Source of the DNA: Candidatus Methanophagaceae archaeon
Lineage (GTDB): Archaea; Halobacteriota; Syntropharchaeia; Alkanophagales; Methanospirareceae
NCBI GenBank assembly: GCA_003194425.1
Contig: PQXB01000001.1
Location: 340,444 to 372,443, forward strand
Length of the DNA: 32,000 bases
Direction of reading: 5' to 3'
The notes beneath the pieces are model-generated. The model was not told the origin of the DNA. It saw only the letters and a program-made list of their open reading frames with translations, and did not search any database. Positions within the stretch are counted from its first letter, which is position 1. Every line of letters begins with the position of its first letter. Made by a program: the position numbers and the translations under genes. Positions 1 through 32,000 of this stretch are shown here, in pieces.

Positions 1-598
1 CCTGCTGCCGAATTTCAGAGACCGCGTTCTCTGCCGCAGTCAGCGCCGACAACTGGTCTTTCGCGAGAATGAAGAAGTTTCCACCTGCAACGCCTGCTTT
101 CGCACCCAAGTTCTTCTCAACCACGAACTCGCCGCCCATTATCGGGACCCTCGCCACTGCTCTGCCCCCGAGTTCTTCTTCCGTCTCGAAGCCGTCGCCG
201 AAGAACTTCAGTTTGAAGCCCGTGTTGAACTCCTTCTCGCTCTCCTCCTTCGTGAGCCCGTTGAAGACCGCGGTCGTGGGGCAGGTGAGCACGCACTGCC
301 CGATTCTCGCAAGTAACTGCTCGTCCAACGCCTTGTAGCCGAAAGTGCAGAACATCACATAAACGCCCGGTCTGCCGTCCGGCGTCTCTTCAGGCGACGC
401 GATTCTGTCGATCCCTGCCTCCGCAGGGCACATTATTACCGAAGTCCCGAAGCCCGTCGCTTCCCTCGCCGCTTCCAACGCCCACCGCTCGTTCACCGCA
501 GTCACCAACACCCGCGCAACTTTTATCGGAAACGCCTCCGCAAAAGTATCTTCTATTTCTACGCCTTCTCCAGCTCCTTCAAATCCTTCCAATTTCAT
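1..598 (-). CDS. ftr: formylmethanofuran--tetrahydromethanopterin N-formyltransferase (Ftr), 5' part only; gene continues past window start
   Basis: Absent from the ORF track because it runs off the window. My translation of the minus strand from ATG (598-596) gives MKLEGFEGAGEGVEIEDTFAEAFPIKVARVLVTAVNERWALEAAREATGFGTSVIMCPAEAGIDRIASPEETPDGRPGVYVMF...LLARIGQCVLTCPTTAVFNGL...GFKLKFFGDGFE...AGGNFFILA. This matches Ftr family blocks as I recall them from Archaeoglobus and Methanopyrus. A GAGGTGA SD-like motif (615-609, minus) lies 10 nt before the ATG. Confidence 0.9.
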   Translation of the reverse strand, partial: MKLEGFEGAGEGVEIEDTFAEAFPIKVARVLVTAVNERWALEAAREATGFGTSVIMCPAEAGIDRIASPEETPDGRPGVYVMFCTFGYKALDEQLLARIGQCVLTCPTTAVFNGLTKEESEKEFNTGFKLKFFGDGFETEEELGGRAVARVPIMGGEFVVEKNLGAKAGVAGGNFFILAKDQLSALTAAENAVSEIRQQ

Positions 599-1612: not shown

Positions 1613-2425
1613 ATGAGAAGAGTAAAGACGAGGACAAAACCAAAACCAAAACAAAAAAACAAAACCGCAGTCTGCGTCTGCTCTGGCGGGGTGGATTCCA
1701 CGGTCGCTGCGACTGTCGCCGCACGCGAAGGCTACGAGTTGCGCCTCTTCCACGCGTCCTACGGGCAGCGGGCGGAACGGCAGGAGAAAGAAGCGGTCGT
1801 GAAAATCGCCGGTTACTTTGGTGTGGGTGCGAAGGATTTAAAATTCGCGGAAATTCCGTTCTTGAAGGAACTCGGTGGCTCGGCACTGACAGACCTCGAG
1901 AGAGAAGTCCCAGTTGGAGAAGAGGTGAAGTTAAATGAAAACGGAGAAACAGGGGGAGAAACAAGAGAAGCAGGAGAAGCAGGAGAAGCAGGAGAAGCAG
2001 GAGAAGCAGGAGAAGCAGGGACAAAGACGCCGTCTACTTGGGTGCCGTGCAGGAACTTGGTTCTTTTGGCAACTGCTTGTGCCTACGCAGAGGTAGTCTC
2101 CGCAGACGCCTTGTTCGTGGGCTTCAACGCCGAAGAGGCAAGGTCGTACCCTGACAACGAGAAGGAGTTCGTTGTGCGGTTCAACGCGGTCTTGGAGAAG
2201 GCGGTGGCTTCTTTTTCGCAGCCGCCGACGGTTAGGGCGCCGCTGGCGGATTTGTTGAAGTCGGGTGTGGTAAAGAAGGGGGTAGAAGTTGGGGCGCCGT
2301 TGCACCTGACTTACTCCTGCTACTTAGGTGGCAAGAAGCACTGCGGGGTCTGCGAGTCCTGCCTTCGTCGGCGGAGAGGGTTTAGAGAAGCTGGTGTAGA
2401 GGACCCGACCGAGTACATTTTTTAG
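1613..2425 (+). CDS. queC: 7-cyano-7-deazaguanine synthase QueC
   Basis: PP-loop motif CVCSGGVDST near the N-terminus. The C-terminal Cys cluster (SCYLGGKKHCGVCESCLRRRRGF) is typical of QueC. ATG start with GAGGGG upstream. The protein carries an in-frame GEA repeat insert and a 17-aa K/T/P-rich N-terminal extension encoded by A/C-rich DNA. Confidence 0.9.
   Translation: MRRVKTRTKPKPKQKNKTAVCVCSGGVDSTVAATVAAREGYELRLFHASYGQRAERQEKEAVVKIAGYFGVGAKDLKFAEIPFLKELGGSALTDLEREVPVGEEVKLNENGETGGETREAGEAGEAGEAGEAGEAGTKTPSTWVPCRNLVLLATACAYAEVVSADALFVGFNAEEARSYPDNEKEFVVRFNAVLEKAVASFSQPPTVRAPLADLLKSGVVKKGVEVGAPLHLTYSCYLGGKKHCGVCESCLRRRRGFREAGVEDPTEYIF
1965..2018. repeat. 9-nt unit GAGAAGCAG x6, in frame inside queC (encodes EAGEAGEAG...)
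   Basis: Read directly; perfect copies at 1965-2018. Confidence 0.95.
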
Positions 2426-4017
2426 TTCAACTCAATCGTCGCAGCGTTTGGGTCCAACCCCTTCCACCTCACCTTAAACCCGAGCTCTGCCAACACCTCG
2501 TCAGGATTTGGCAACCCCAACCCCTCAATTACCCGCCTCGCCTCGGCGTACAACCTTACACCGGCAAGTCTGCCCTCCACCTCATTTAACAACCCCCTTT
2601 TTACCACCACCTCTTTAAACACAACAAAATCCGAGTAACCCGGAGCCTTCAAGCACGCTCTCACCGCCTCCTTACCCACCTTGTACCGCGTAGCAAGATC
2701 CTTGATAAAAATTATTCCGCCCTCGAGACAAATCTCCACACTACTCAAACTTTCCACCTGCCTCCGCGTCTCCTCTGTCTCAATCTTCGCCAAATGCCAA
2801 AGCACCTCGCCGAGAGGGACTTTTCGGGTGTAAAGAATCGTAGGGTGTCCAAGATCCAAATCGAAGTTCAGGAGGTTGAAGCACGCGAGGTTGCTGTTAA
2901 GAGCGACCAAAATGTTAAACGGCAGAGCCCGCAGCTTCGAGAACTTCTTTCTCAGGTAGTCCGCCGTCCAGAACCCCACGATTTCAAAATAAACCTCCAC
3001 TCCCTCCGCCTCTTTGTGCTTGAACTTAAAGTCGGGCAGGAAGACGCCCTTGCCCGTGAAAATCGCATTCGGCTCTCTCACCAACTCCCAACTCTCCGCC
3101 GCCGGCGTTGCTAAAAATTCGTTGTAAAATTTCTCTTCGACGCGGCTGTCAAACACGGGCTGCTCCTTCTTTGTCTCACTCTCTCGGCTCGTCGTCAGCA
3201 AACCCTTGCTCCTGCTGCTGTCCAGGAGAAAATGGTAAATTTGGGGAGTCCTGTCTCGCCTGACGACAACCTCAGCGTCCAGCGCCCACTCGTCGCTGCG
3301 GACTACCGCGGGAAGCAATTTCGCCAACGCCGTGCCGTACCGCTCGCTCAACTTCAGCAGCGACGACGCACCCTCAATCCTTATTTTTATTTTTCCACCA
3401 CTCCCCCCACCTTTCGGCGAGTACATCAAGCCGTTCTTCTTAACCGCCCTGAAAATCTCTTTAAATCCGCTCTTGAACTCGAGTGTCATTCCCGTAGACT
3501 TGAACAACAGCGTTTGAGCAAGCGAAAGGTTGTAGGACCGCAACAACTCCTCAGGCGTTAAACTTGAAGCCGTAAAATCCGCCAAAACAACCTCCGATTC
3601 CAGGTCCGACCACAGAGACCGCTCCAAATCCGCAGCCGAGACGCCTAACCTCGCCGCAACATTTTCAACCACCTCCTCCCTTGCTTCTCGGCTCGTGACT
3701 CTTCCGCTGCTCGCACTGCTCGCCGCCTCGAAGACCGCCCGCCTCGCCAGTACAGGTTCAACCGCAAACTCGGACTTAAAGACGCACCGCCGCTCCAGAA
3801 GCGTTCTCAAGCCCCGGACGAGTTTGAAGTTCAAGCCCTGCTCCTGCTCAAACTCCGCAAATATTTCGTCGATTTCGCTCCTCTTTCTGCCCGCGAAATT
3901 TTTATAAACCGCTCCCACCTCCGCAGCCAACTCCAAACGCTCCGCGTCCAACTTTGCGAAGACTGGATAAATTCGGTCCTTCTTCGTCCTCGTGACTAGC
4001 AGGTCAGCCGGCAACAT
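2422..4017 (-). CDS. bax1: Bax1 (DUF790) nuclease, the XPB-associated endonuclease
   Basis: Lies immediately downstream of, and overlapping, the XPB gene, which is the canonical archaeal xpb-bax1 arrangement. The N-terminus MLPADLLVTRTKKDRIYPVF and the C-terminal block VEVYFEIVGFWTADYLRKKFSKL match DUF790 as I recall it. The ORF track extends to 4053 through a TTG codon (MRGDAKTKTKTK). I prefer the ATG at 4017, which overlaps the xpb stop by 14 nt. Confidence 0.8.
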   Translation of the reverse strand: MLPADLLVTRTKKDRIYPVFAKLDAERLELAAEVGAVYKNFAGRKRSEIDEIFAEFEQEQGLNFKLVRGLRTLLERRCVFKSEFAVEPVLARRAVFEAASSASSGRVTSREAREEVVENVAARLGVSAADLERSLWSDLESEVVLADFTASSLTPEELLRSYNLSLAQTLLFKSTGMTLEFKSGFKEIFRAVKKNGLMYSPKGGGSGGKIKIRIEGASSLLKLSERYGTALAKLLPAVVRSDEWALDAEVVVRRDRTPQIYHFLLDSSRSKGLLTTSRESETKKEQPVFDSRVEEKFYNEFLATPAAESWELVREPNAIFTGKGVFLPDFKFKHKEAEGVEVYFEIVGFWTADYLRKKFSKLRALPFNILVALNSNLACFNLLNFDLDLGHPTILYTRKVPLGEVLWHLAKIETEETRRQVESLSSVEICLEGGIIFIKDLATRYKVGKEAVRACLKAPGYSDFVVFKEVVVKRGLLNEVEGRLAGVRLYAEARRVIEGLGLPNPDEVLAELGFKVRWKGLDPNAATIELN

Positions 4018-5452
4018 TTTTGTCTTGGTTTTTGTTTTTGCGTCTCCTCGCAATTCCCACCTCGGTCGTCCGTTTTGAGACGATTTCGTAGAGAACCGCC
4101 AGCTTCTCTTTTTTCCCCTTCCCCTTTCCCTTCCCTGTCTCCGTCTTCCGCAGAATCCGACCCAGTCGCTGCTTGTATTCCCGCCTGCTCCCGCTCCCGC
4201 TCAAAATAACGCCAACCGACGCCTCTGGAACATCAATTCCCTCCTCCAGAACCTTTGAAGTTACCACCACTTTGTACCTCCCGTCTCGGAACTTCTCCAA
4301 GATTTCCGCACGCTCCTCTTTCGGCGTGGTGTGCGTGATTGCGGGAACGAGGAACTCTCGGGAGATTGCGTAGACCAGAGAATTGTGCTCCGTGAAAATA
4401 ATTATTCGCTCGCCGAAGTGCCGGTCCAGAATTTCGGCAAGAGCCTTCAACTTAGTGCTCGAGTTCAAAGCGATTCTCCTCGCCCGGTTCCTCGCCAGCA
4501 GAGCCTCTCTCGCACCCGCGTCCCGACCGGCTCGCATAACGAGCAGCCTGAAATCCCGGGGCGACCGCAGGACAACGCCCTTCTGCTTCAAGAAATCTGT
4601 GAAAACGGCGTGGTATTTTTCGTACTCCTCCCTCTCTTCCCCCGTCAAATCGGTAACGACCCGCCTCGTCGTGTAGTTTGCCAAATGCCGCCCCGCCAGC
4701 TTTTCTACGCTGATTTCATAAACCTTCCCCCCCACCAGCCTCTCGAGGTCTGCGTGCAGTCCGTCCTCGCGCTCGTAAGTCGCGGTCAAGCCCAGCCTGT
4801 ACGGAGCGACAAACATCTCGGCGATGCTCGCAAACCCCGGCGAAGGCAGGTGGTGAACCTCGTCGAAGACCAAGAAGAGAAACCTGTTCCCCAGCTCCTC
4901 CGCCCTCAAGTACGCGGTCTCGTAGGTCGAGACTGTTAGTGGCTTCAAAATGTGCGCCTCGCCGCTGTAAGTCCCTACCTCAACTTCAGCTCCCTCTCCC
5001 CCTCCCTTTCCCCCTCCCTCTCCCCCTGTCCCCAACCGCCTCTCCAGTTCCCTCTTCCACTGCCGAACCAACTCCAAAGTCGGCACAACTACCAGCGTTG
5101 GAACATTCAGCACCGAAATCGCCTTTATTCCGACCACTGTCTTGCCCGCGCCGGTAGGCAGGACCAACGCACCTCGCCTCGTCTGCAGCCATTTTTTTAA
5201 TGCCTCCTCCTGGTAGTCGTGCAGCCTCAACCCCAACTCACAGCAGCTCAAATCCTGCATCGGCAGCAAGTCCAGAACCTTGTCCTCGTACTCGAGCCCC
5301 GAAAGTTTCAAGTAGCCCACCAAATCCTCGTAAAACATCGCGAGGCACCTGTAGCACCCCAACCGCTCGTCCCACGCAGTGTGCGGCAGTCTGAAATTGC
5401 TGGCTACTACTACCGTCCCCTTCGCAAAGCTCAAACTTATCATTCTCCTCAC
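4004..5452 (-). CDS. xpb: XPB/Rad25-type SF2 DNA helicase
   Basis: Walker A LPTGAGKT, motif II FDEVHHL, the XPB-specific RED motif (TYEREDG), and the C-terminal helicase block VTSKVLEEGIDVPEASVGVILSGSGSRREYKQRLGRILR. The track start at 5452 is GTG, with the first ATG at 5443. Low-complexity inserts are GTGGEGGGKGGGEGAEVEVG and KTETGKGKGKGKKEK. Confidence 0.88.
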   Translation of the reverse strand: MRRMISLSFAKGTVVVASNFRLPHTAWDERLGCYRCLAMFYEDLVGYLKLSGLEYEDKVLDLLPMQDLSCCELGLRLHDYQEEALKKWLQTRRGALVLPTGAGKTVVGIKAISVLNVPTLVVVPTLELVRQWKRELERRLGTGGEGGGKGGGEGAEVEVGTYSGEAHILKPLTVSTYETAYLRAEELGNRFLFLVFDEVHHLPSPGFASIAEMFVAPYRLGLTATYEREDGLHADLERLVGGKVYEISVEKLAGRHLANYTTRRVVTDLTGEEREEYEKYHAVFTDFLKQKGVVLRSPRDFRLLVMRAGRDAGAREALLARNRARRIALNSSTKLKALAEILDRHFGERIIIFTEHNSLVYAISREFLVPAITHTTPKEERAEILEKFRDGRYKVVVTSKVLEEGIDVPEASVGVILSGSGSRREYKQRLGRILRKTETGKGKGKGKKEKLAVLYEIVSKRTTEVGIARRRKNKNQDKNVAG

Positions 5453-24223: not shown

Positions 24224-25175
24224 CAGCAAGAAAATGTTTAGCGAACTCGCGTGCCTCTTGCAGACTCCTGTCTCGGCTGAGTACAGCCCGCCTCAAAACA
24301 TATTTCTCACGACCGAACCCAAAATAAACCGCTAACTCAACTCCTTCTTTGTTCCCTCTCCCGCTCCCGCTCTCTTTCCCTCCCTCTCTCCCGCAGCAAG
24401 CATGCACACCCACCGGAAGCGAGCACCCGCCGCCAATCACTTTTAACACCTCCTGCTCCACCTCCGCCTCTCTCCTCGTCTCCGCGTCGTCAACCGCTTT
24501 TAATCTCTCGCTCGCCTCTGTCCCCCACCTCGTAACCACAGCAATTATTCCCTGATTCGGCGACGGCACAAAAGGGTCGCAGTTAAGCCTCTCGCACTCG
24601 TGCTCCAGCTCCTTACCCAACCCCAACCGCTCAAGCCCCGCCTCTGCAAGAATCACGCCGTCGTACTCGCCGTTCTTAAGTTTCCTCAACCTCGTGCCTA
24701 CATTTCCACGAATCTCTTTTACCCGCACTTCTACGCCTCGCTCCGCAGCGTAGTTCAGGAGTTGGAACTTCCTCCGCACGCTCGAGGTCCCTACTACCGC
24801 ACCCTCTCTCTCTCCCTTTCCCTCTGCCTCCAGCAGTTCGTCCAACCCGCACCCGTGCCTCAAGACCAGAGCGTCGTAGGGCGAGTCGCGAGGCAGAACC
24901 GCCGCCGTCTCCAACCGCTCGTCCCTCTCCAGCGGAATGTCCTTCATTGAATGCACCGCAAAGTCAATTTTGCCGTCTAAAACCAGCCTGTCCAACCGCT
25001 TGACAAACACCCCCTTCTCCGGCATTTCTGACAAACTCCTGCCTGTCAAAGCGTCCCCTAAACTCTGCACCTTTCGAACCTTGAGCTCGTCCTCAAAACC
25101 CGCCGCTCGCAGCCGCTCGCACACCCTCTCGGTCTGCACCACCGCCAACTCACTGCCTCGCGTCCCGACAATCAT
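24195..25175 (-). CDS. hemC: hydroxymethylbilane synthase (porphobilinogen deaminase)
   Basis: The blocks IVGTRGSELAVVQT, DFAVHSMKDIP, GTSSVRR, IRGNVGTRLRKL, ILAEAGLERLG and GGCSLPVG are classical HemC. The 3' end overlaps the cimA 3' end by 29 nt (convergent). Confidence 0.92.
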   Translation of the reverse strand: MIVGTRGSELAVVQTERVCERLRAAGFEDELKVRKVQSLGDALTGRSLSEMPEKGVFVKRLDRLVLDGKIDFAVHSMKDIPLERDERLETAAVLPRDSPYDALVLRHGCGLDELLEAEGKGEREGAVVGTSSVRRKFQLLNYAAERGVEVRVKEIRGNVGTRLRKLKNGEYDGVILAEAGLERLGLGKELEHECERLNCDPFVPSPNQGIIAVVTRWGTEASERLKAVDDAETRREAEVEQEVLKVIGGGCSLPVGVHACCGREGGKESGSGRGNKEGVELAVYFGFGREKYVLRRAVLSRDRSLQEAREFAKHFLAATDTGDSRR

Positions 25176-27550
25176 TTATTTCTCTTCTTCTCTCTTTCTC
25201 TCGTTCGCTTCCGCCTTAACCAAACCACCGCAAGCAAGAGTCCAGCAACGCAGAACGCCGCCTCAAAACCTGGCTGCTCCTCTCCTGGCTGCTCCTCTCC
25301 TTCCTCCTCTCCTTTTTCTTCCAGTGTCGGAGTTGGCGTGGGTGAAGGCGTTGGCGTTGCAGCGGCAACGCTCTCGTTCCCTCCCTCCACTGCAGGTGTA
25401 GGCGAAGGTGTAGGCGTGGGCGTGGTGCGGACATTTACCGACGGCTCGACCGCTGGAAGAATTCTCACCGTCGTTGTAGCAGTGTGCCCGTCGCCGTCGT
25501 CCGCGGTCACCAAATATTCGCCCACCTTCGCGGTCGCAGTCTCGAACGAGTCTTTGAACTTGTTGTAGAACTGTTCTTCGTCTTCCTCGATCTCTATGAA
25601 TTTGGGCTTCAGTTTTGTCGCATTTTCTCCCAGCCCTTCAACCGTGACGATGATAGATTTCTCCACTTTTCTGTTCGTAATTCCGCTAACCTCAAGCTCA
25701 GAGCCAAGCACCACATCCTCCAACTCGTCAAGCTCCACAAAACCCTCCTCCACTTTTATCGTCGCAATGCCAAGGAGGTCGTCGCTGCCCGCCTCATTTA
25801 TCGTCTTGTCTTTTAAAATCTCCAAAATCTGCTCGCTCGTCTTGACCTCAAGCGAACTGGAAAAACCGTTAGTCAGGACGCTCAGCAAATCGTCGCTACT
25901 GCTCATTCCCCACACTCGGTCCCGCCCGTAACTGAGCACAGGAATTAAATAAATACCCGTGTCTGCGTCCTCGTTCGCTTTTATCCAAGTTGTCTTAAAC
26001 TCCCCGTCTTCCGTTACTCCGCAGGTGTGGTGTGTAAGACCCGGGGCATTCATTTTTCCGTCGGTCTCTCCAAAAATGTCGTCAGGGTTGAGCCCCACTC
26101 TACCACCGCCTTTTGGTGCAATCGTCAGGATGTCCACGCGGTCCCTGCCCGGCACCGTCCCTTTAACTATAAAGTCGTCACCTCGAGCAACAAATCCTGT
26201 ATGAATATCATCCTTTGCATAAGTCTCCGCAAACAACCCGCCTCGGATGAGAACGATTGTCTCTGACACGTCTGGCAGGTCTGTTTCAGGATCAGAAATC
26301 GGTAAAACCCACATCTCTATTTCGTGCGTTCCAGGTGAGAGGTCTTCGGTATACAAATAATAAACATCCCCAAGCTCGACATTCTCCTTAAAAACATCAT
26401 CATCAATTTTAATCGTCATCCTGTCGCCTGCGTCTGCGGAACCACTGATCTCAAGAATCTCGCCGATGTAATACACTCCTTCTTCAAGCCCAGTTAGCTC
26501 TGGCTCGAGCACCGTAATTTTCACACTTGTTCGGTTCTTGGTCTGAACCTCGTGCTCGGTTGCGGTAATGTCGTAATTGCCGGTCTCGGTGAAAGATGCG
26601 ACTGCCTTAAACAAGCCGTCTTCATCTGATATTCCGAAGGCACTGTGCCCGCCCGTCTTTGGCTCGCCAATGCCTGCACCCTCGTTGAACCAGACGTTTA
26701 ACTCTTCACCTCGTGTTACATTCAGGCTAATAAATGTGTGTGGAGTAGTAGAGACAGAGAACACGATTTCTTCGGTAACGGTCTGCTCTTCGGGTTTCGC
26801 TTTTATCTCGACGCCTACACTCCTCACCTCAAAAGAGACCGCGGGACCTTCTACATCAAGCCCGTTGTTCGTCTCTGGGTCTGTTTCAATGCTGAGCCTG
26901 TAGGGTCTGGTGTCGGTGTCGAGTTTAGCAGTGTTTATCGTCACAGTATTTTCGCCGTTCTCACTAACATCAATATTTTCAAGGGACACATTTTCGCCAA
27001 CATCCTCCTCTGGCACACGCAACCCGTCGGGGTCTAAAAGTTTGTAGGTAATGTTGTTTGGCAGGGGTCCTTTAATGATACTTAAATATGTGTGCGCCTC
27101 AAAGGTTATATTTCCGCCTTGCGTAACCCACGAAAAATCCTCGCCCTTCACCTTCACATTAGCATCTAATTTCGGCAACACAAAATATATTATCGTAGAT
27201 ATTGTGTCATTTATTGTAGCATTTGCAGCAGTACCTTCAACTTTGTACTCTCCCTCAACCAGCTTCGGCTCCTCACTGGAATCAAACGGACCCTTAAAGG
27301 AGATAATTATGTGGCTGTCCTGCCAATTGCTCTTTATTACGCCTTCGGATATTAGAACTCCAGATGCATCAACAAAACTCAAGTTCGTCTCACCGATGAT
27401 GGCAGTAGAACCGAGAGAAGCATTTCCAATCGCCCGCCCGACCTCAGGACTGACGCCAGCTTTCACAGGTGCAAATAAAGTAAATATCAAAATTAGTGCG
27501 ACTGCTGCCGGCAGGGCTGCCCTCACACTCTGCAACACTTTCTTATCCAT
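25172..27550 (-). CDS. large secreted surface (S-layer-like) glycoprotein candidate with PT-rich linker and PGF-CTERM archaeosortase sorting signal
   Basis: Signal peptide MDKKVLQSVRAALPAAVALILIFTLFAPVKA. At least 11 N-x-S/T sequons. C-terminal TPTPTPSPTP...TPTPSPTPTPT linkers are followed by PGFEAAFCVAGLLLAVVWLRRKR, which matches the PGF-CTERM pattern (PGF + TM + basic tail). The stop overlaps the hemC start (ATGA). Confidence 0.8.
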   Translation of the reverse strand: MDKKVLQSVRAALPAAVALILIFTLFAPVKAGVSPEVGRAIGNASLGSTAIIGETNLSFVDASGVLISEGVIKSNWQDSHIIISFKGPFDSSEEPKLVEGEYKVEGTAANATINDTISTIIYFVLPKLDANVKVKGEDFSWVTQGGNITFEAHTYLSIIKGPLPNNITYKLLDPDGLRVPEEDVGENVSLENIDVSENGENTVTINTAKLDTDTRPYRLSIETDPETNNGLDVEGPAVSFEVRSVGVEIKAKPEEQTVTEEIVFSVSTTPHTFISLNVTRGEELNVWFNEGAGIGEPKTGGHSAFGISDEDGLFKAVASFTETGNYDITATEHEVQTKNRTSVKITVLEPELTGLEEGVYYIGEILEISGSADAGDRMTIKIDDDVFKENVELGDVYYLYTEDLSPGTHEIEMWVLPISDPETDLPDVSETIVLIRGGLFAETYAKDDIHTGFVARGDDFIVKGTVPGRDRVDILTIAPKGGGRVGLNPDDIFGETDGKMNAPGLTHHTCGVTEDGEFKTTWIKANEDADTGIYLIPVLSYGRDRVWGMSSSDDLLSVLTNGFSSSLEVKTSEQILEILKDKTINEAGSDDLLGIATIKVEEGFVELDELEDVVLGSELEVSGITNRKVEKSIIVTVEGLGENATKLKPKFIEIEEDEEQFYNKFKDSFETATAKVGEYLVTADDGDGHTATTTVRILPAVEPSVNVRTTPTPTPSPTPAVEGGNESVAAATPTPSPTPTPTLEEKGEEEGEEQPGEEQPGFEAAFCVAGLLLAVVWLRRKRTREREKKRNK

Positions 27551-27646: not shown

Positions 27647-28576
27647 ATGAAACAAAAAAAAAAAGTTCGGGTAAGAGGCAAGGAGACAGTGGCGACAGTG
27701 GTGGCATTTTTTTTGCTCGCATTGGCTACGCTGCCCTCCAACACTGCTGCAGTCGTACCAGCTGCCGAAGAAGTCTACATTTCCTGCATTAACGATTCTC
27801 AGATCGGGAAAGAAGTGACGGTCTCGGGTGTTGTCACAGCAATCGCGAGCAACCTCGAGCCTTCAAGCTCTACCGAGGACGGCATTCAGACCTTCGAGCC
27901 CGGCGACACGAGCGTTCTGACCTTAGACGACGGAACAGACACAATTTTCGTCAGCACCGACCCGCGGCTCTTGGAGAAAGTTTACAAAGGTCAAAGGCTC
28001 ACGGTCGTCGGAATTTACGCGGGCGACGACGAAATAAGCGAGGGCAAGGGCATAATCTACGCGGACAAACTCGGTCCCAAGGAACGGGTCTACGAAGAAG
28101 TAACCGTTAAAGAGCTCAAAGAATTTCCAGAGTATTTTTACGGGAACGCAGTGCTCCTGCAGGGGAATGTTACACGAATCGAACTCACGCACGGTAAGAC
28201 GGAGTTAGGAATTGACGACGGTACCGGGACGGTGCCTGTGGAATATGCCGCCGAGACGAGCGAAATAACTGTGGGCGAGCGGGTAACGGTTGAAGGTAAG
28301 TTTTACAGGAACAAGGTCTACGCATTTGCAGTAACACCAGAGAAGCCCAAAACGACGCCAACCCCGACTCCAACGTCAAGCCCGGCTCCAACGCCAACTC
28401 CAACCCCGACGCTAAGCCCGGCTCCAACGCCAACTCCAACCCCGACGCCAACAGCAGCAGGAACGAGTGCGTTCCATTTGGTTTCATATATTTTCACAGT
28501 TATTTCGGTCGCAGTAGCAGGCGTACTTGTTGCTCTTAAAATAAGAGAGTGGCTCATACTCAGAGGCTACAAGTGA
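27647..28576 (+). CDS. secreted protein with two tandem OB-fold-like modules, PT-rich linker and C-terminal TM anchor
   Basis: Signal peptide, then two modules with the OB-fold (tRNA_anti-like) pattern. Module 1 is GKEVTVSGVVTAI...VLTLDDGTDTIFV...GQRLTVVGIY. Module 2 is AVLLQGNVTRI...ELGIDDGTGTVPV...GERVTVEGKFY. These are followed by TPTPTPTSSPAPTPTPTPTLSPAPTPTPTPTPT and the TM segment VSYIFTVISVAVAGVLVAL. The fold assignment is by pattern only. Confidence 0.65.
   Translation: MKQKKKVRVRGKETVATVVAFFLLALATLPSNTAAVVPAAEEVYISCINDSQIGKEVTVSGVVTAIASNLEPSSSTEDGIQTFEPGDTSVLTLDDGTDTIFVSTDPRLLEKVYKGQRLTVVGIYAGDDEISEGKGIIYADKLGPKERVYEEVTVKELKEFPEYFYGNAVLLQGNVTRIELTHGKTELGIDDGTGTVPVEYAAETSEITVGERVTVEGKFYRNKVYAFAVTPEKPKTTPTPTPTSSPAPTPTPTPTLSPAPTPTPTPTPTAAGTSAFHLVSYIFTVISVAVAGVLVALKIREWLILRGYK
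28378..28449. repeat. 36-nt unit AAGCCCGGCTCCAACGCCAACTCCAACCCCGACGC(T/C) x2 encoding the PT-linker
   Basis: Read directly (28378-28413, 28414-28449; one mismatch). Confidence 0.95.
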
Positions 28577-28590
28577 ATATTTTCGTAAGA

Positions 28591-31182
28591 ATGGTCTTGA
28601 AATGGAGAGTCAAAGCAGACAAGATAGTAGACAAGAGACTTAGGAGGATTGAAAGAGCTAAAGCGATACAGGAAAGAATACTTAAAATAAAGGAGGCAAA
28701 TACCAAAAGGGCAGAATCAACGAAAAATCAGAAAAAGATAAAAAAGGCTAAAGCCGAAGAAGAGCAAGCAAGAGCAATTCTTAAAAAAATAGAAGAAGAA
28801 AAAGACCGCCTAACAACTCACAAAAGGCAGGGCAGAGCCCTAAACCCTAAACCGAACCAAGAACCATGGAAAGAGAAAAGACCCCAGAAAGAGAAAAAGA
28901 AGCGGGAAAAGTACCCTGTCAACGAGGCGTTTTTGTTTAGCGTTGATGAAAAAGTAGAAGAAATTGAAGAGTCCTTGAACAAGGGCGTTATCTCGGAGAG
29001 CTTGCTGGATTTGTTCAACAAAAAAGGAGTTCCTCTTTCCGAAGAGGCCATTGTTACGAAGGACTGCTTATTTGAGTGGGAGAAAGTCCCTGGCGAGGAC
29101 AACAAGAGGTTCTTAAACACCCTCACGTACCTCTTAAATCTTAACTGGGCTAAAGGTGCAAAGATCACCAAATCCGGAGACCGCAAAACCATTCGCCTCT
29201 CTAAAGAGGAAAAGTCGGCTGAGATAACAATCAATGAGCGAGAGGAGAAACTGACCTTAAAAATTAGCGACGGCAAAACTGACTACCTAAAAGTTAAGAA
29301 AGAGAACGGCAGGTTAAACGCATACAAAAGAGGGAAAGAGAATGAGTGGGAGATAACCGATTTTGAAGACGACGAAGAGACAGAAAAGTTCATTCTCAGA
29401 AAAGAAGAAGGAGGAGGAAAAAAGTTAGATGTTTTTATGCTCTTTGCATCCGTCCTGATAGAAGACCCGTTAGAAGCGACTGCCCCTCCAACCTACCGAG
29501 TTTGGGAGCCAAAATTCAGAAAAGGCAGAGCCGTGGACAGAGCCGCTGGCAGAGCCGTAGCGGGCAACGACGAGGAGGAGTTGTTAAAAGAGATAAAAAT
29601 CCGTCTTTATGAGGAGATCAGCGAAACTTCCACAGAATCTATCCGCGAGAGTTTTTTAGAGCAGAAATTGGAGAAAATAACCGAGGGTCTCAACATTGAG
29701 CAGAGCAAAAACTCTAAACTGCTGCAGAAAATAAAAGATTTGATAAGTAAGAAGGAGTTCATTAAGAGCGAGGAGTTGGATCCGACAGAGCGGGACAGAG
29801 TGGTGGCGGAATGTAAGAGCTTCTTGAAATCCCTTCTAAACGAGGCGCAAAAAACTATTGAAGACCGCCTTCGTAAAACAATAAATGAGAGTTTCGAAAT
29901 AGACCGTATTCGCAAGGATTTTTTAGACCAGAAGGTTCAGGAAACAATTAAGGAGCACTACAAGGAGCAGAGACAAGACCGTCGGCTAATTGAAAAATTA
30001 AAATATTACATAACCCGAGATTTCATTGGCTACAGCAAGTTAGACCCGATTATGAACGACAAAATGGTGGAGGACATCTCAGTCGACGGCCCTAACATTC
30101 CGCTCTACGTCTTTCACCGGAGATACGACTCGATAAGGACGAGCATAATTTTTGAAAAGACAGATTTAGATGCGATAATTTATAAATTAGCACAGCGGGC
30201 GGGCAGACACATCTCACTGGCTAAACCGCTCTTAAACGCTTCTCTTCCTAATAACGACAGACTGCAGCTGAGCCTTGGGGACGAGGTTACAACGAAGGGC
30301 AGCACCTTTACGATAAGGAAGTTCAGAGAAGAACCTCTTACTCCGATTTACCTTATTAAGTCTGAAACATTCTCGACCGAGATGATGGCTTATCTCTGGA
30401 TGGCAGTCGAGAACGGCTTCAATATCCTCATAGCAGGCGGCACCGCCTCGGGCAAGACCACCACCTTAAACGCGATCGCTATGTTCATTCCACCAGAGAG
30501 CAAGATCATTTCCATCGAAGACACGAGGGAGATAAACTTGTCGCACGAGAATTGGATTCCTGATGTCACTCGGGAAGTCGAAGAAGGAAGTCATTCAATT
30601 GAGATGTTTGACCTCCTGAAGGCTGCACTGCGGCAGCGACCCGAATATATTTTAGTGGGCGAGGTTAGAGGCGCGGAGGCGACGACTCTCTTTCAAGCAA
30701 TGGCTACCGGACACATCACCGTCTCAACCGTTCACGCCGATTCCCCTGAGGCTGTGGTCAGGAGGCTGACGAAGCCCCCGATTAATGTCCCGCTAATGCT
30801 ACTTGACAGTCTAAACATAATACTTATTCAGCGGTCGGTGAAGATAGGGGAAAGAAGAGAGAGGAGGTGCACCGAAATTATAGAAGTAAATGGTGTTGAT
30901 TTCGAGAAAGAGACCCTAAAAACCATAAAACTTTTTCATTGGGACTCGTCAGATAAATTTCACTTCAAAGGAGAAAGTCAGTCAAAAATTCTTAGCGAAA
31001 TAAGCGAGAAGTTAAATATGAAGAACGAAGAGGAGTTGTCAAATGAGTTTTATCGCCGTGTAGAAATTTTGAACTGGATGAGAGCAACCGTAACAGACTT
31101 TCAGTCTCTGAGTAAGATTATTTTTGAATACAATATGAATCCAAGAGAGGTTGAGGAGAAGCTAAAAAAAGATAGAAAATAA
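28591..31182 (+). CDS. FlaI/ArlI/VirB11-family (type II/IV secretion, archaeal type IV pilus-type) ATPase with an N-terminal extension of roughly 480 aa
   Basis: Core motifs are Walker A IAGGTASGKTTTLNA, Asp box IISIEDTREI, Walker B PEYILVGEVRGAEA and His box TGHITVSTVHA. The N-terminal half is K/E-rich and unrelated to the canonical family. The track start at 28549 is GTG and overlaps the upstream gene. The first ATG is 28591. Confidence 0.85.
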   Translation: MVLKWRVKADKIVDKRLRRIERAKAIQERILKIKEANTKRAESTKNQKKIKKAKAEEEQARAILKKIEEEKDRLTTHKRQGRALNPKPNQEPWKEKRPQKEKKKREKYPVNEAFLFSVDEKVEEIEESLNKGVISESLLDLFNKKGVPLSEEAIVTKDCLFEWEKVPGEDNKRFLNTLTYLLNLNWAKGAKITKSGDRKTIRLSKEEKSAEITINEREEKLTLKISDGKTDYLKVKKENGRLNAYKRGKENEWEITDFEDDEETEKFILRKEEGGGKKLDVFMLFASVLIEDPLEATAPPTYRVWEPKFRKGRAVDRAAGRAVAGNDEEELLKEIKIRLYEEISETSTESIRESFLEQKLEKITEGLNIEQSKNSKLLQKIKDLISKKEFIKSEELDPTERDRVVAECKSFLKSLLNEAQKTIEDRLRKTINESFEIDRIRKDFLDQKVQETIKEHYKEQRQDRRLIEKLKYYITRDFIGYSKLDPIMNDKMVEDISVDGPNIPLYVFHRRYDSIRTSIIFEKTDLDAIIYKLAQRAGRHISLAKPLLNASLPNNDRLQLSLGDEVTTKGSTFTIRKFREEPLTPIYLIKSETFSTEMMAYLWMAVENGFNILIAGGTASGKTTTLNAIAMFIPPESKIISIEDTREINLSHENWIPDVTREVEEGSHSIEMFDLLKAALRQRPEYILVGEVRGAEATTLFQAMATGHITVSTVHADSPEAVVRRLTKPPINVPLMLLDSLNIILIQRSVKIGERRERRCTEIIEVNGVDFEKETLKTIKLFHWDSSDKFHFKGESQSKILSEISEKLNMKNEEELSNEFYRRVEILNWMRATVTDFQSLSKIIFEYNMNPREVEEKLKKDRK

Positions 31183-31216: not shown

Positions 31217-32000
31217 ATGAAGAGTATTGATGAAATAGCATTTGGTATCTTCGGTGCATATTTCAAGACAAAACGAGAGTTTCGTTGGTTCGTTTCGTTG
31301 CGAGAAAATCTTATAAAAGCAAGGATATTCGTTTCTATCGAAAGATGGCTCTCGAAAGCGGTCTTTTATTCTGTTATTGGATCTTGTGTTCTGCTCTCAA
31401 TTTATTTGTCAATGAAGTTTCTGCTCTCTCTTCTCCCAAAACTCGACCTCAGTTTTTCTTTCGGTTTAACCGATTTTATAATCATAACCACAGGCAGTGT
31501 AATCGCGTTCTGCTCGGTCTTCTGCGGTTTTTATTTCCTGCCAAATATGAAGGCGTGGGAGAGGAAAAGGAAGATAGAAGAGCTTCTTCCTTACGCCATC
31601 AGCTACATCTCCTCGATGGCAGCGATTGGAATGATTCCTTACGAGATTTTCAAGAAACTGTCAGAGGAGGGGGAGAATTATGGGGAAGTGAGCGTTGAGG
31701 CGCGGCAGATAGTGCGTGATGTGAGCTTTTTCGGGTATGATTTTATGACTGCACTAAAGAACCTTGCATCTACGACGCCGTCTGCGAACATGCGAACTTT
31801 CCTGCAAGGTGCAGTAACAACGGCTCTTTCTGGTGGCGAGATGGGGGTGTATTTTATTAATACAGCAAAAATATATATGGCAGAGCGAAGGAAGAATTAC
31901 GAGAATTTTATTAATACTTTGGGAATAATTGCGGAGTTTTATGTTACAGGGCTGGTTGTTGGACCGCTACTTCTCATCGTCGTCCTTGCGATAATGTGTT
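31217..32000 (+). CDS. FlaJ/TadC/PilC-like polytopic membrane platform protein (T2SS-F domain), 5' part; continues past window end
   Basis: Not in the ORF track (runs off the window). My translation from ATG 31217 gives MKSIDEIAFGIFGAYFKTKREFRWFVSLRENLIKARIFVSIERWLSKAV...LLPYAISYISSMAAIGMIPYEIFKKLSEEGENYGEVSVEARQIVRDVSFFGYDFMTALKNLASTTPSANMRTFLQGAVTTALSGGEMGVYF. This fits the archaeal FlaJ/TadC cytoplasmic-domain pattern. GGGGAGAG lies upstream. Confidence 0.8.
   Translation, partial: MKSIDEIAFGIFGAYFKTKREFRWFVSLRENLIKARIFVSIERWLSKAVFYSVIGSCVLLSIYLSMKFLLSLLPKLDLSFSFGLTDFIIITTGSVIAFCSVFCGFYFLPNMKAWERKRKIEELLPYAISYISSMAAIGMIPYEIFKKLSEEGENYGEVSVEARQIVRDVSFFGYDFMTALKNLASTTPSANMRTFLQGAVTTALSGGEMGVYFINTAKIYMAERRKNYENFINTLGIIAEFYVTGLVVGPLLLIVVLAIMC

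Follow-up and report, generated by a model that had tools for sequence, protein, structure and literature searches.

The 32,000-nt stretch analysed here (the window; positions 340,444 to 372,443 of contig PQXB01000001.1, Candidatus Methanophagaceae archaeon) carries at 28573 to 31182, on the plus strand, a gene for a secretion/pilus-assembly ATPase of the FlaI/afGspE type. The encoded protein is about 290 residues longer than its relatives. We consider it likely, from sequence comparison, that it was enlarged by nested, in-frame coding cassettes resembling miniature transposable elements with inverted repeats (MITEs), together with a tandem duplication and a short repeat. The cassettes belong to a family that is found in hundreds of proteins and is a more interesting result than the ATPase itself.

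Insertions within the N-terminal domain

The closest genomes are metagenome-assembled genomes (MAGs) of Methanophagales, Methanophagaceae and Methanospirareceae, all belonging to the ANME-1 group of anaerobic methanotrophic archaea. Their orthologues of the ATPase are 62-68% identical to the window protein, and all of them are short, with open frames of 588-658 codons and called proteins of 561-628 aa. In these short forms, a K/E/A-rich helical tail leads directly to the sequence EKYPVNEPYAYVxI..PPxYxVxEVxLTxGExELLKEIK. In the window protein, whose residues are numbered here from the ATG at 28591 (863 aa), the same tail and the same motifs are present, but EKYPVNE (residues 106-112) is separated from the hairpin MLFASVLIED..PPTYRVWEP (residues 283-307) by a long stretch that the short forms do not have. 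The N-terminus of the short orthologue aligns with afGspE (2OAP) from chain residue 27, and through it EKYPVNE corresponds to afGspE residues 32-38 and the two motifs together to residues 32-60, approximately. Since canonical motifs flank them on both sides, the extra residues are insertions inside the N-terminal domain. Two further parts, a block comprising approximately residues 329-416 and the segment GRAVDRAAGRAVAG, are likewise absent from the short forms according to the alignment. The parts of the gene, all on the plus strand, are as follows, with the basis of each assignment in brackets.

28591..28905, +, N-terminal tail rich in K/E/R (residues 1-105) with two long predicted helices ahead of a basic low-complexity linker (AlphaFold2, alignment)
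28906..28926, +, EKYPVNE, conserved start of the canonical N-terminal domain, residues 106-112 (alignment)
28929..29436, +, nested in-frame insertion A(B), 508 nt, residues 113-282, with A split by B (absent from all short orthologues)
28929..28942, +, putative 5' terminal inverted repeat of cassette A, GTTTTTGTTTAGCG (12/14 positions shared with the family terminus GTATTTGTTTAGCT)
29064..29325, +, cassette B, exactly 262 nt, residues 159-245 (gapless, full-length, diverged copy of the family)
29437..29511, +, canonical first beta-hairpin of the N-terminal domain, MLFASVLIEDPLEATAPPTYRVWEP, residues 283-307 (alignment, model)
29524..29565, +, small lineage-specific insertion GRAVDRAAGRAVAG (12-nt motif present twice, 24 nt apart; absent from P0002, see below)
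29575..29784, +, helical unit copy 1, diverged, residues ~329-398 (Smith-Waterman)
29785..29838, +, spacer between the helical units, residues 399-416 (alignment)
29839..30048, +, helical unit copy 2, canonical, residues ~417-486, with the C-terminal end YYITRDFIGYSKLDP (Smith-Waterman, alignment)
30049..31179, +, remainder of the N-terminal domain and C-terminal ATPase domain (Pfam, NCBIfam, PDB alignment)

The long form was found in two lineages only. The first is the window's own, in which the 869-aa open reading frame (ORF) recurs on independent contigs of other samples (P0001; L030, L031, L032). The second, referred to as P0002, has an ATPase of 906-911 aa with the same order of parts and 61% identity, and is present on at least five contigs (L001, L002, L034-L036). 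As judged from these alignments, the long form derives from the short one. A previous interpretation made from the window sequence without database searches (the sequence-only reading) had described the additional residues as a novel N-terminal extension. This description has to be abandoned, because the canonical start EKYPVNE lies upstream of the unassigned sequence and the hairpin downstream of it. The K/E/R-rich tail noted in the same reading is real, with two long helices in the AlphaFold2 model (residues 2-44 and 47-83), but it is not a special feature of this protein, since the short ANME-1 orthologues share it.

Within the insertion, a DNA profile built only from elements residing in other genes matched the B copy of the window gapless from model position 4 to 262 (nhmmer, E = 4.5e-45). 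The 5' end of A at 28929 is the sole terminus-like site in the 32-kb window, and no further copies of the cassettes were detected elsewhere in the window or in the ANME-1 ATPase loci.

The sequence-only reading was correct in proposing an internal module duplication further downstream. The proposed module (29641-29784) lies inside helical unit copy 1, and we recovered the same 17 identities with one gap between the two copies, with a Smith-Waterman score of 76 compared to 26 +/- 5 for shuffled sequences (z = 9.8; none of 2000 shuffles reached the score). Because the alignment continues collinearly into the preceding helix (residues 329-398 against 417-486; score 92, z = 9.0), the duplicated unit comprises about 70 residues. 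Copy 2 matches the single module of the short orthologues with z = 16 and copy 1 with z of about 8. Thus copy 2 is indeed the canonical segment preceding the DP...EDIS.DG entry into the core, as had been proposed. The same helical duplication is present in P0002 (z = 6.7).

The small insertion GRAVDRAAGRAVAG is encoded by two copies of a 12-nt repeat, GGCAGAGCCGTG and GGCAGAGCCGTA, which are 24 nt apart. Apart from this GRAV repeat, a search within the gene for direct or inverted DNA repeats that could mark insertions yielded only short matches at chance level. A possible duplication of a host strand around the insert (YPVNEAFLFSV versus KLDVFMLFASV) was also considered and rejected as not significant (z = -1.0).

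A family of in-frame cassettes in unrelated proteins

We compared a profile of the insert with 1.8 billion representative proteins in an exhaustive search, which detected 1349 proteins at E <= 1e-3, nearly all of them by a core of about 90 residues, which we named module B and which corresponds in the window to residues 159-245 (CLFEWEKVPGED...NGRLNAY). A word-index homologue search with the insert alone returned nothing. Module B can stand alone, be repeated in tandem (arrays of up to about ten copies) or be embedded in unrelated proteins. Hosts identified by Pfam include the small subunit of replication factor C (RFC), the large subunit of primase, asparaginase, the Cas10 palm domain and RAMP proteins, as well as Baseplate_J, Tail_P2_I, KAP and STAND NTPases, and pentapeptide, HEAT and GAF proteins. 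The B-only proteins originate from Methanophagales and Halobacteriota MAGs, and one host protein from an Altiarchaeales MAG; where the source gives a name to B-only proteins, it is 'hypothetical protein'. Pfam found no family in the stand-alone cassette proteins, and neither Pfam nor NCBIfam found one in residues 1-480 of the window ATPase. Thus, the segment of about 200 residues that the sequence-only reading called non-repetitive and left unassigned indeed has no Pfam or NCBIfam match, but in a wider sense it is repetitive and can be assigned, namely to two repeat families present in hundreds of proteins. Annotators and domain databases currently have no model for the cassette.

The second module, A, is formed by the residues flanking B in the window (113-158 and 246-282) and follows the pattern FS[VI]..E..LNKG.IS..L...F...G.PLSE.A.V.K/..W.ITD....F.I.KE...KL.V[FY]. 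It was found intact in other proteins. In one unrelated protein (P0083), B interrupts A where it does so in the window, and therefore A(B) may have been inserted as one unit. Alternatively, B may prefer a target site within A.

Two side observations concern individual carriers. In an RFC small subunit (P0088), approximately 210 residues of B-type modules separate the AAA core (41-158) from the lid (386-424); the DNA_primase_lrg and asparaginase hits are likewise essential replication and translation-related enzymes with an in-frame cassette. P0002-type ATPases vary in how many acidic GGDEE repeats the C-terminal part of cassette A contains (L034 2576-5308, 911 aa, versus L036 5443-8160, 906 aa). 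This loop is thus length-polymorphic between samples.

With an alignment of 36 sequences, AlphaFold2 predicted module B at high confidence (predicted local distance difference test, pLDDT, 91-98) as a compact alpha/beta module of about 88 aa, consisting of a strand, a helix and a six-strand meander, while the parts of A stayed at low confidence. The full-length monomer, predicted from a shallow alignment, reached a pLDDT of 66, and the long N-terminal helices and the helical duplication are visible in it. The first strand of module B is YLFSW and the last is KLNIY, and both are encoded by the inverted repeats themselves (see below). The two ends of the predicted module are probably close together, so that B should be easily accommodated in a loop of a host protein. 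A Foldseek search with B against PDB and BFVD revealed no significant relative (best E = 0.04). Frataxin-like and copper-amine-oxidase-N-like alpha+beta matches recurred, but were weak and not convincing. The predicted fold is therefore one without a solved relative.

For analysis at the DNA level, 80 metagenome loci encoding B were fetched (87 copies; approximately 825 kb). In many pairs of copies, a stretch of about 260 nt is 80-96% identical, while the 200 nt on each side of it show no relationship, and alignment of the copies together with their flanks revealed razor-sharp ends, with conservation reaching from GTATTTGTTTAGCTGGGA to GGCAAGCTAAACATATAC. The modal length of the element is exactly 262 nt. 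It is bounded by a 14-nt terminal inverted repeat, for which the consensus 5' end (GTATTTGTTTAGCT) and the reverse complement of the consensus 3' end match at 13/14 positions, and individual copies mostly at 10-12/14. In 16 of 31 clean 262-nt elements the 8-nt flanks match each other at six or more positions, three of them perfectly, while this was never found for control flanks shifted outward by 10 nt. Since 262 and 8 nt add up to 270 nt, each insertion of B would add 90 codons and keep the host frame. Furthermore, the 825 kb contain 85 13-mers resembling the terminus (by our own estimate about two are expected by chance), and 20 plus/minus pairs of them are exactly 262 nt apart. Intact copies of A elsewhere bear the same termini as B. 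The cassette B has no transposase of its own.

A frame-blind search of the loci with a DNA profile detected 93 copies, and 89 of them lie in frame within long ORFs. Three of the four exceptions are at contig or ORF ends, and one contains an internal stop. Substitutions per site across the B copies are 0.17, 0.18 and 0.23 at codon positions 1, 2 and 3, respectively, and 31% of the codon changes are synonymous. This suggests that selection on the amino acid sequence is weak across the family, while stop codons are clearly excluded. As read from the alignments, these are the hallmarks of a MITE that would survive only where it lands in frame.

Some further observations concern individual sites and strands. 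Two intact A copies have odd flanks. At one of them (L062 3607-3816, minus strand), a perfect 8-nt direct repeat, GAACGCTA, lies outside the element at a distance of 10 nt from one end and of 2 nt from the other, and at the second (L038 189-398) the two flanks are inverted relative to each other as a repeat (actcatgaaatt / gaaattcatgagt). Two explanations offer themselves: the ends of A and B are not defined in the same way, or nested events have occurred. In a Methanospirareceae MAG, a lone terminus-like site (GTATWTGTTTAGC, at most one mismatch) is present at L005 6935, about 1 kb upstream of a short ATPase orthologue; this could be chance. Finally, cassette B has an antisense frame without stop codons, both in the window (28818-29276, minus strand, a 152-aa ORF) and in the family consensus, and because of the inverted repeats its product would also start with Y-M-F-S and end with L-N-K-Y. 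We considered this as evidence of insertion in both directions and rejected it: no antisense insertion was seen among the copies examined, and the open frame is likely a by-product of the purine-rich sense strand.

The closest documented analogue of the cassette family is the Rickettsia palindromic elements (RPEs; Ogata et al. 2000, 2002), bacterial repeats of about 150 bp. According to PMC10969869, RPEs are small non-autonomous repeats that occur many times in frame in unrelated genes and add a conserved peptide without destroying the host protein. Relative to RPEs as portrayed there, the cassettes described here differ in being mainly archaeal (ANME-1, Altiarchaeales), in their length of 262 bp, in the 14-nt inverted ends and 8-bp target duplications, and in the predicted alpha/beta module. 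Given the differences in length and hosts, sequence homology between the two is unlikely. In the literature on in-frame or intragenic MITEs in archaea or ANME, we found no description of the cassette family. We are in two minds whether A and B together represent a previously undescribed class of archaeal transposable elements. Members of such a class would be MITE-like, with a length that together with the target duplication is a multiple of three and with inverted repeats that encode the first and last strands of a self-folding module. They could thereby seed domains into surface loops of any protein, such as replication enzymes, CRISPR effectors or a pilus ATPase, and perhaps were kept for function in some hosts, possibly including this ATPase. 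In-frame domain insertion by transposons has been documented mainly for Rickettsia; the cassettes show that in uncultured anaerobic archaea it operates on a large scale and extends to essential genes. As multi-copy sequences, the cassettes may also contribute to the fragmentation of the contigs that bear many copies of them.

Origin of the enlarged ATPase

Based on these observations, the following course of events can be proposed. The ancestral enzyme of the clade would have had about 560-650 residues, composed of a coiled-coil tail, a canonical afGspE/FlaI-like N-terminal domain and a C-terminal domain. The ATPase gene belongs to an operon that is conserved in ANME-1, where it lies between the gene of an OB-fold membrane protein and one or more genes of half-size TadB/TadC-like platform proteins. 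A composite of two non-autonomous cassettes, in which B (262 nt) was nested in A and both had the termini GTATTTGTTTAGC...GCTAAACATATAC, would then have inserted in frame right after YPVNE, at the first beta-strand of the N-terminal domain. In addition, the helical sub-domain ahead of RDFIGYxKLDP would have been duplicated in tandem, and a short repeat would have added GRAVDRAAGRAVAG. Module B probably bulges from a host loop and leaves the host fold unbroken. The insert is presumably translated, and the hexamer would tolerate it as a peripheral passenger; any gain of function, for example a new contact, would be secondary. Since the catalytic machinery is untouched, the ATPase most likely still acts as a hexameric pilus or secretion motor. 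In this way, what looked like a mysterious N-terminal domain is replaced by a concrete history, and the residues of the host protein can be distinguished from those of the passenger. Such a map is needed for structural or functional work on pili or secretion in ANME-1.

The comparison of the window ATPase with P0002 shows how the insert was treated by selection. The synonymous divergence (dS) between these lineages is approximately 0.9-1.0, which is near saturation and makes the ratios of nonsynonymous to synonymous divergence (dN/dS) meaningful only relative to each other: 0.26 for the A(B) insert, 0.14 for the rest of the N-terminal domain, 0.19 for the ATPase domain, and 0.62 for the extra helical unit (copy 1 and spacer), which evolves fastest. 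At a dS of about 1, its dN/dS of 0.26 means that the insert was kept under constraint over a long period. Retention of this kind fits both a tolerated passenger that must stay folded and a domesticated domain; given the spread of the family and its presence in housekeeping enzymes, we favour the passenger.

Several points weigh against insertion of mobile cassettes into this gene. Purifying selection on the insert would be equally expected for an adaptive new domain. No recognisable target-site duplication is present around A or B in the window (3/8 for B, as read from the sequence), and three of the four termini are weak: those of B match the family terminus at 7/14 (5') and 10/14 (3') and the 3' terminus of A at about 7/14, again as read from the sequence. 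Because its own ends are eroded, the transposon origin of the window copy rests on family membership and on the exact length. The target-site evidence for A is also thin in general, as there are three intact DNA copies, one with a 6/8 match. The 825 kb of loci and viral contigs yielded no autonomous transposase whose termini match, and no copies of the cassette were found in the viral contigs of IMG/VR. Finally, the 80 loci were recovered by a peptide pattern, by which decayed, intergenic and antisense copies are under-sampled.

The strongest alternative is adaptive domain accretion, in which the modules would have been recruited for a new binding partner or a regulatory input; in one version, proteins carrying B would make homotypic B-B contacts. 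The conservation of the insert in two lineages (dS ~1, dN/dS 0.26) and the confident prediction of B as a folded domain are compatible with recruitment, and B resembles adaptor domains in being frequent in multidomain NTPases, defence proteins and tail-like proteins and in forming tandem arrays. However, B is spread by a DNA cassette that has inverted repeats at its ends and target duplications around it, and a common partner is implausible for housekeeping hosts such as RFC, primase and asparaginase. The enrichment of changes at third positions is mild, which together with the 31% synonymous codon changes suggests weak amino acid selection, and no partner is evident in the operon. We therefore regard adaptive accretion as unlikely. 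As for the suggestion of the sequence-only reading that the extra sequence may couple the motor to an additional partner, selfish insertion followed by tolerance is at least as likely in view of how the insert originated.

Removal of the cassette after transcription or translation, in the manner of an intron or intein, would leave a mature ATPase of normal size. The inverted-repeat ends could pair in RNA and thereby join the two junctions, and inteins are known in archaeal RFC and other ATPases. Like the cassettes, inteins are in-frame insertions in conserved proteins, including RFC. They differ from the cassettes, which have no splicing motifs and no endonuclease and whose ends are set by DNA inverted repeats and target duplications. 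The residues at the junctions do not suit an intein either: the module starts with Y/L-L-F-S-W and ends with L-N-I-Y, its first residue being Y, L, F or C, its last Y, and the next residue variable. According to our own reading of the alignment, the terminal stem lacks a bulge-helix-bulge layout. Moreover, nearly all copies maintain an open sense frame, and purifying selection acts on the insert; an RNA-spliced element would need neither. Removal of the cassette thus appears very improbable.

A frameshift, chimeric assembly or two-gene fusion as the source of the long ORF, which the sequence-only reading had named as a finding that would overturn it, can practically be dismissed: although repeated cassettes can mislead assemblers and many family members are on very short contigs, the same 869-aa ORF is present on independent contigs, the 61%-identical version of 906-911 aa on at least five, and the reading frame is continuous with host motifs on both sides of the insert.

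The ATPase gene, its operon and neighbouring genes

The remaining features of the ATPase gene and of its operon, all on the plus strand, are listed here.

27647..28576, +, upstream gene (signal/anchor segment, weak OB-fold-like matches, Pro/Thr-rich linker, C-terminal membrane helix)
28573..31182, +, secretion/pilus-assembly ATPase gene, FlaI/afGspE type (ORF, Pfam, NCBIfam and PDB matches)
30436..30459, +, Walker A motif GGTASGKT, residues 616-623 (sequence)
30502..30531, +, Asp box IISIEDTRE (read from sequence)
30640..30672, +, Walker B motif EYILVGEVRG (read from sequence)
30721..30744, +, His box STVHADS (read from sequence)
31217..32000, +, gene of a platform protein (T2SSF/TadC/FlaJ-like), ending beyond the window edge (PF00482, 52.8 bits)

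The ATPase is encoded in a single uninterrupted ORF at 28549-31182 on the plus strand, which amounts to 877 aa when counted from its GTG. Since the upstream gene ends at 28576, it overlaps the first codons of this ORF. In a metagenome copy with 99% identity, the longest ORF has 869 aa, and its GTG, which corresponds to window position 28573, overlaps the upstream stop codon as GTGA. The first ATG, at 28591, would give 863 aa. Thus, the true start is probably the GTG at 28573 (869 aa) or, alternatively, the ATG at 28591.

The sequence-only reading placed a FlaI-type core at the C-terminal end of the protein, which agrees with our results. The Pfam family T2SSE (PF00437) matches residues 526-751 (124.4 bits at a cut-off of 24.9), and the NCBIfam FlaI model NF058587 matches residues 418-847 with 397.7 bits, which is below its equivalog cut-off of 550 and leaves the first 86 model positions unaligned. 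All four ATPase motifs are intact and conserved in the alignment with the orthologues. Among solved structures, the top relative is afGspE of Archaeoglobus fulgidus (2OAP; E = 3e-111, residues 433-858 against chain 85-507); the matches to Sulfolobus FlaI (E = 9e-77) and CpaF (E = 1e-40) are weaker, and the TadA model scores 154 bits. The length of the protein, which had been noted as unusual for the family, is so indeed (863-869 aa compared to approximately 560-650 aa in the orthologues).

With afGspE (2OAP/2OAQ) the window protein shares the ATPase motifs, the YxxxEP...Y.V.EP hairpin and the helical segment. However, afGspE, with its 511 residues, lacks a coiled-coil tail, has nothing inserted after the EP motif and contains one helical unit. 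FlaI/ArlI of Sulfolobus acidocaldarius (4II7/4IHQ) belongs to the same superfamily and has the same domain order, but the window protein scores under the FlaI equivalog cut-off and has no archaellum genes nearby. Lineage-specific, variable N-terminal domains have been described for archaeal type IV pilus ATPases, for example domains rich in cysteine in subclade 4F (Makarova et al. 2016, PMC4858521). In contrast to the case described here, these are terminal additions of another sequence type, while the additional residues of the window protein are internal and one addition is a putative transposable cassette.

The upstream gene and the start of the ATPase gene overlap by 4 nt. A homologue of the upstream gene precedes the short ATPase in ANME-1 G60 (L009 6397-7947), and we conclude that this gene is probably part of the same system. 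In related contigs, the platform protein downstream of the ATPase has 299-305 aa and one T2SSF domain (L031 3012-3911; L001 2917-3834), which is half the usual size. In the locus of ANME-1 G60, the genes of the OB-fold membrane protein and of the ATPase (584 aa), in this order, precede a tandem of two half-size platform genes (300 and 338 aa; L009 9695-11617), and the gene order around the window ATPase is the same. As judged from sequence and synteny, the window gene is the orthologue of a conserved pilus- or secretion-type ATPase of ANME-1, and its host would be a methane-oxidising, ANME-1-like archaeon. An ATPase gene followed by half-size platform genes instead of one fused FlaJ resembles the Tad system (CpaF/TadA, TadB/TadC), but the sequence similarity of the ATPase to CpaF/TadA is much lower.

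Genes for archaellin, FlaH, FlaF and FlaG were found neither near the ATPase up to the end of the window nor in the syntenic ANME-1 locus, and because of this lack of archaellum components nearby the ATPase is not considered an archaellum gene. Nor were genes for a pilin or a prepilin peptidase seen in the window. A gene at 25172-27550 on the minus strand, divergent from the pilus-type operon, encodes a surface protein of 792 aa that carries a PGF-CTERM sorting signal and weakly matches the MEMAR surface-layer glycoprotein family.

The other genes of the window are ordinary chromosomal ones, including those for QueC, XPB and DUF790 proteins, DapB, thymidylate kinase, CbiZ, ABC (ATP-binding cassette) transporters, ThiD-ThiN, LeuA and HemC. 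At 2422-5452, on the minus strand, a DUF790 gene (2422-4053) comes after a gene for an XPB-type helicase (4004-5452), an arrangement that presumably resembles the archaeal XPB-Bax1 pair.

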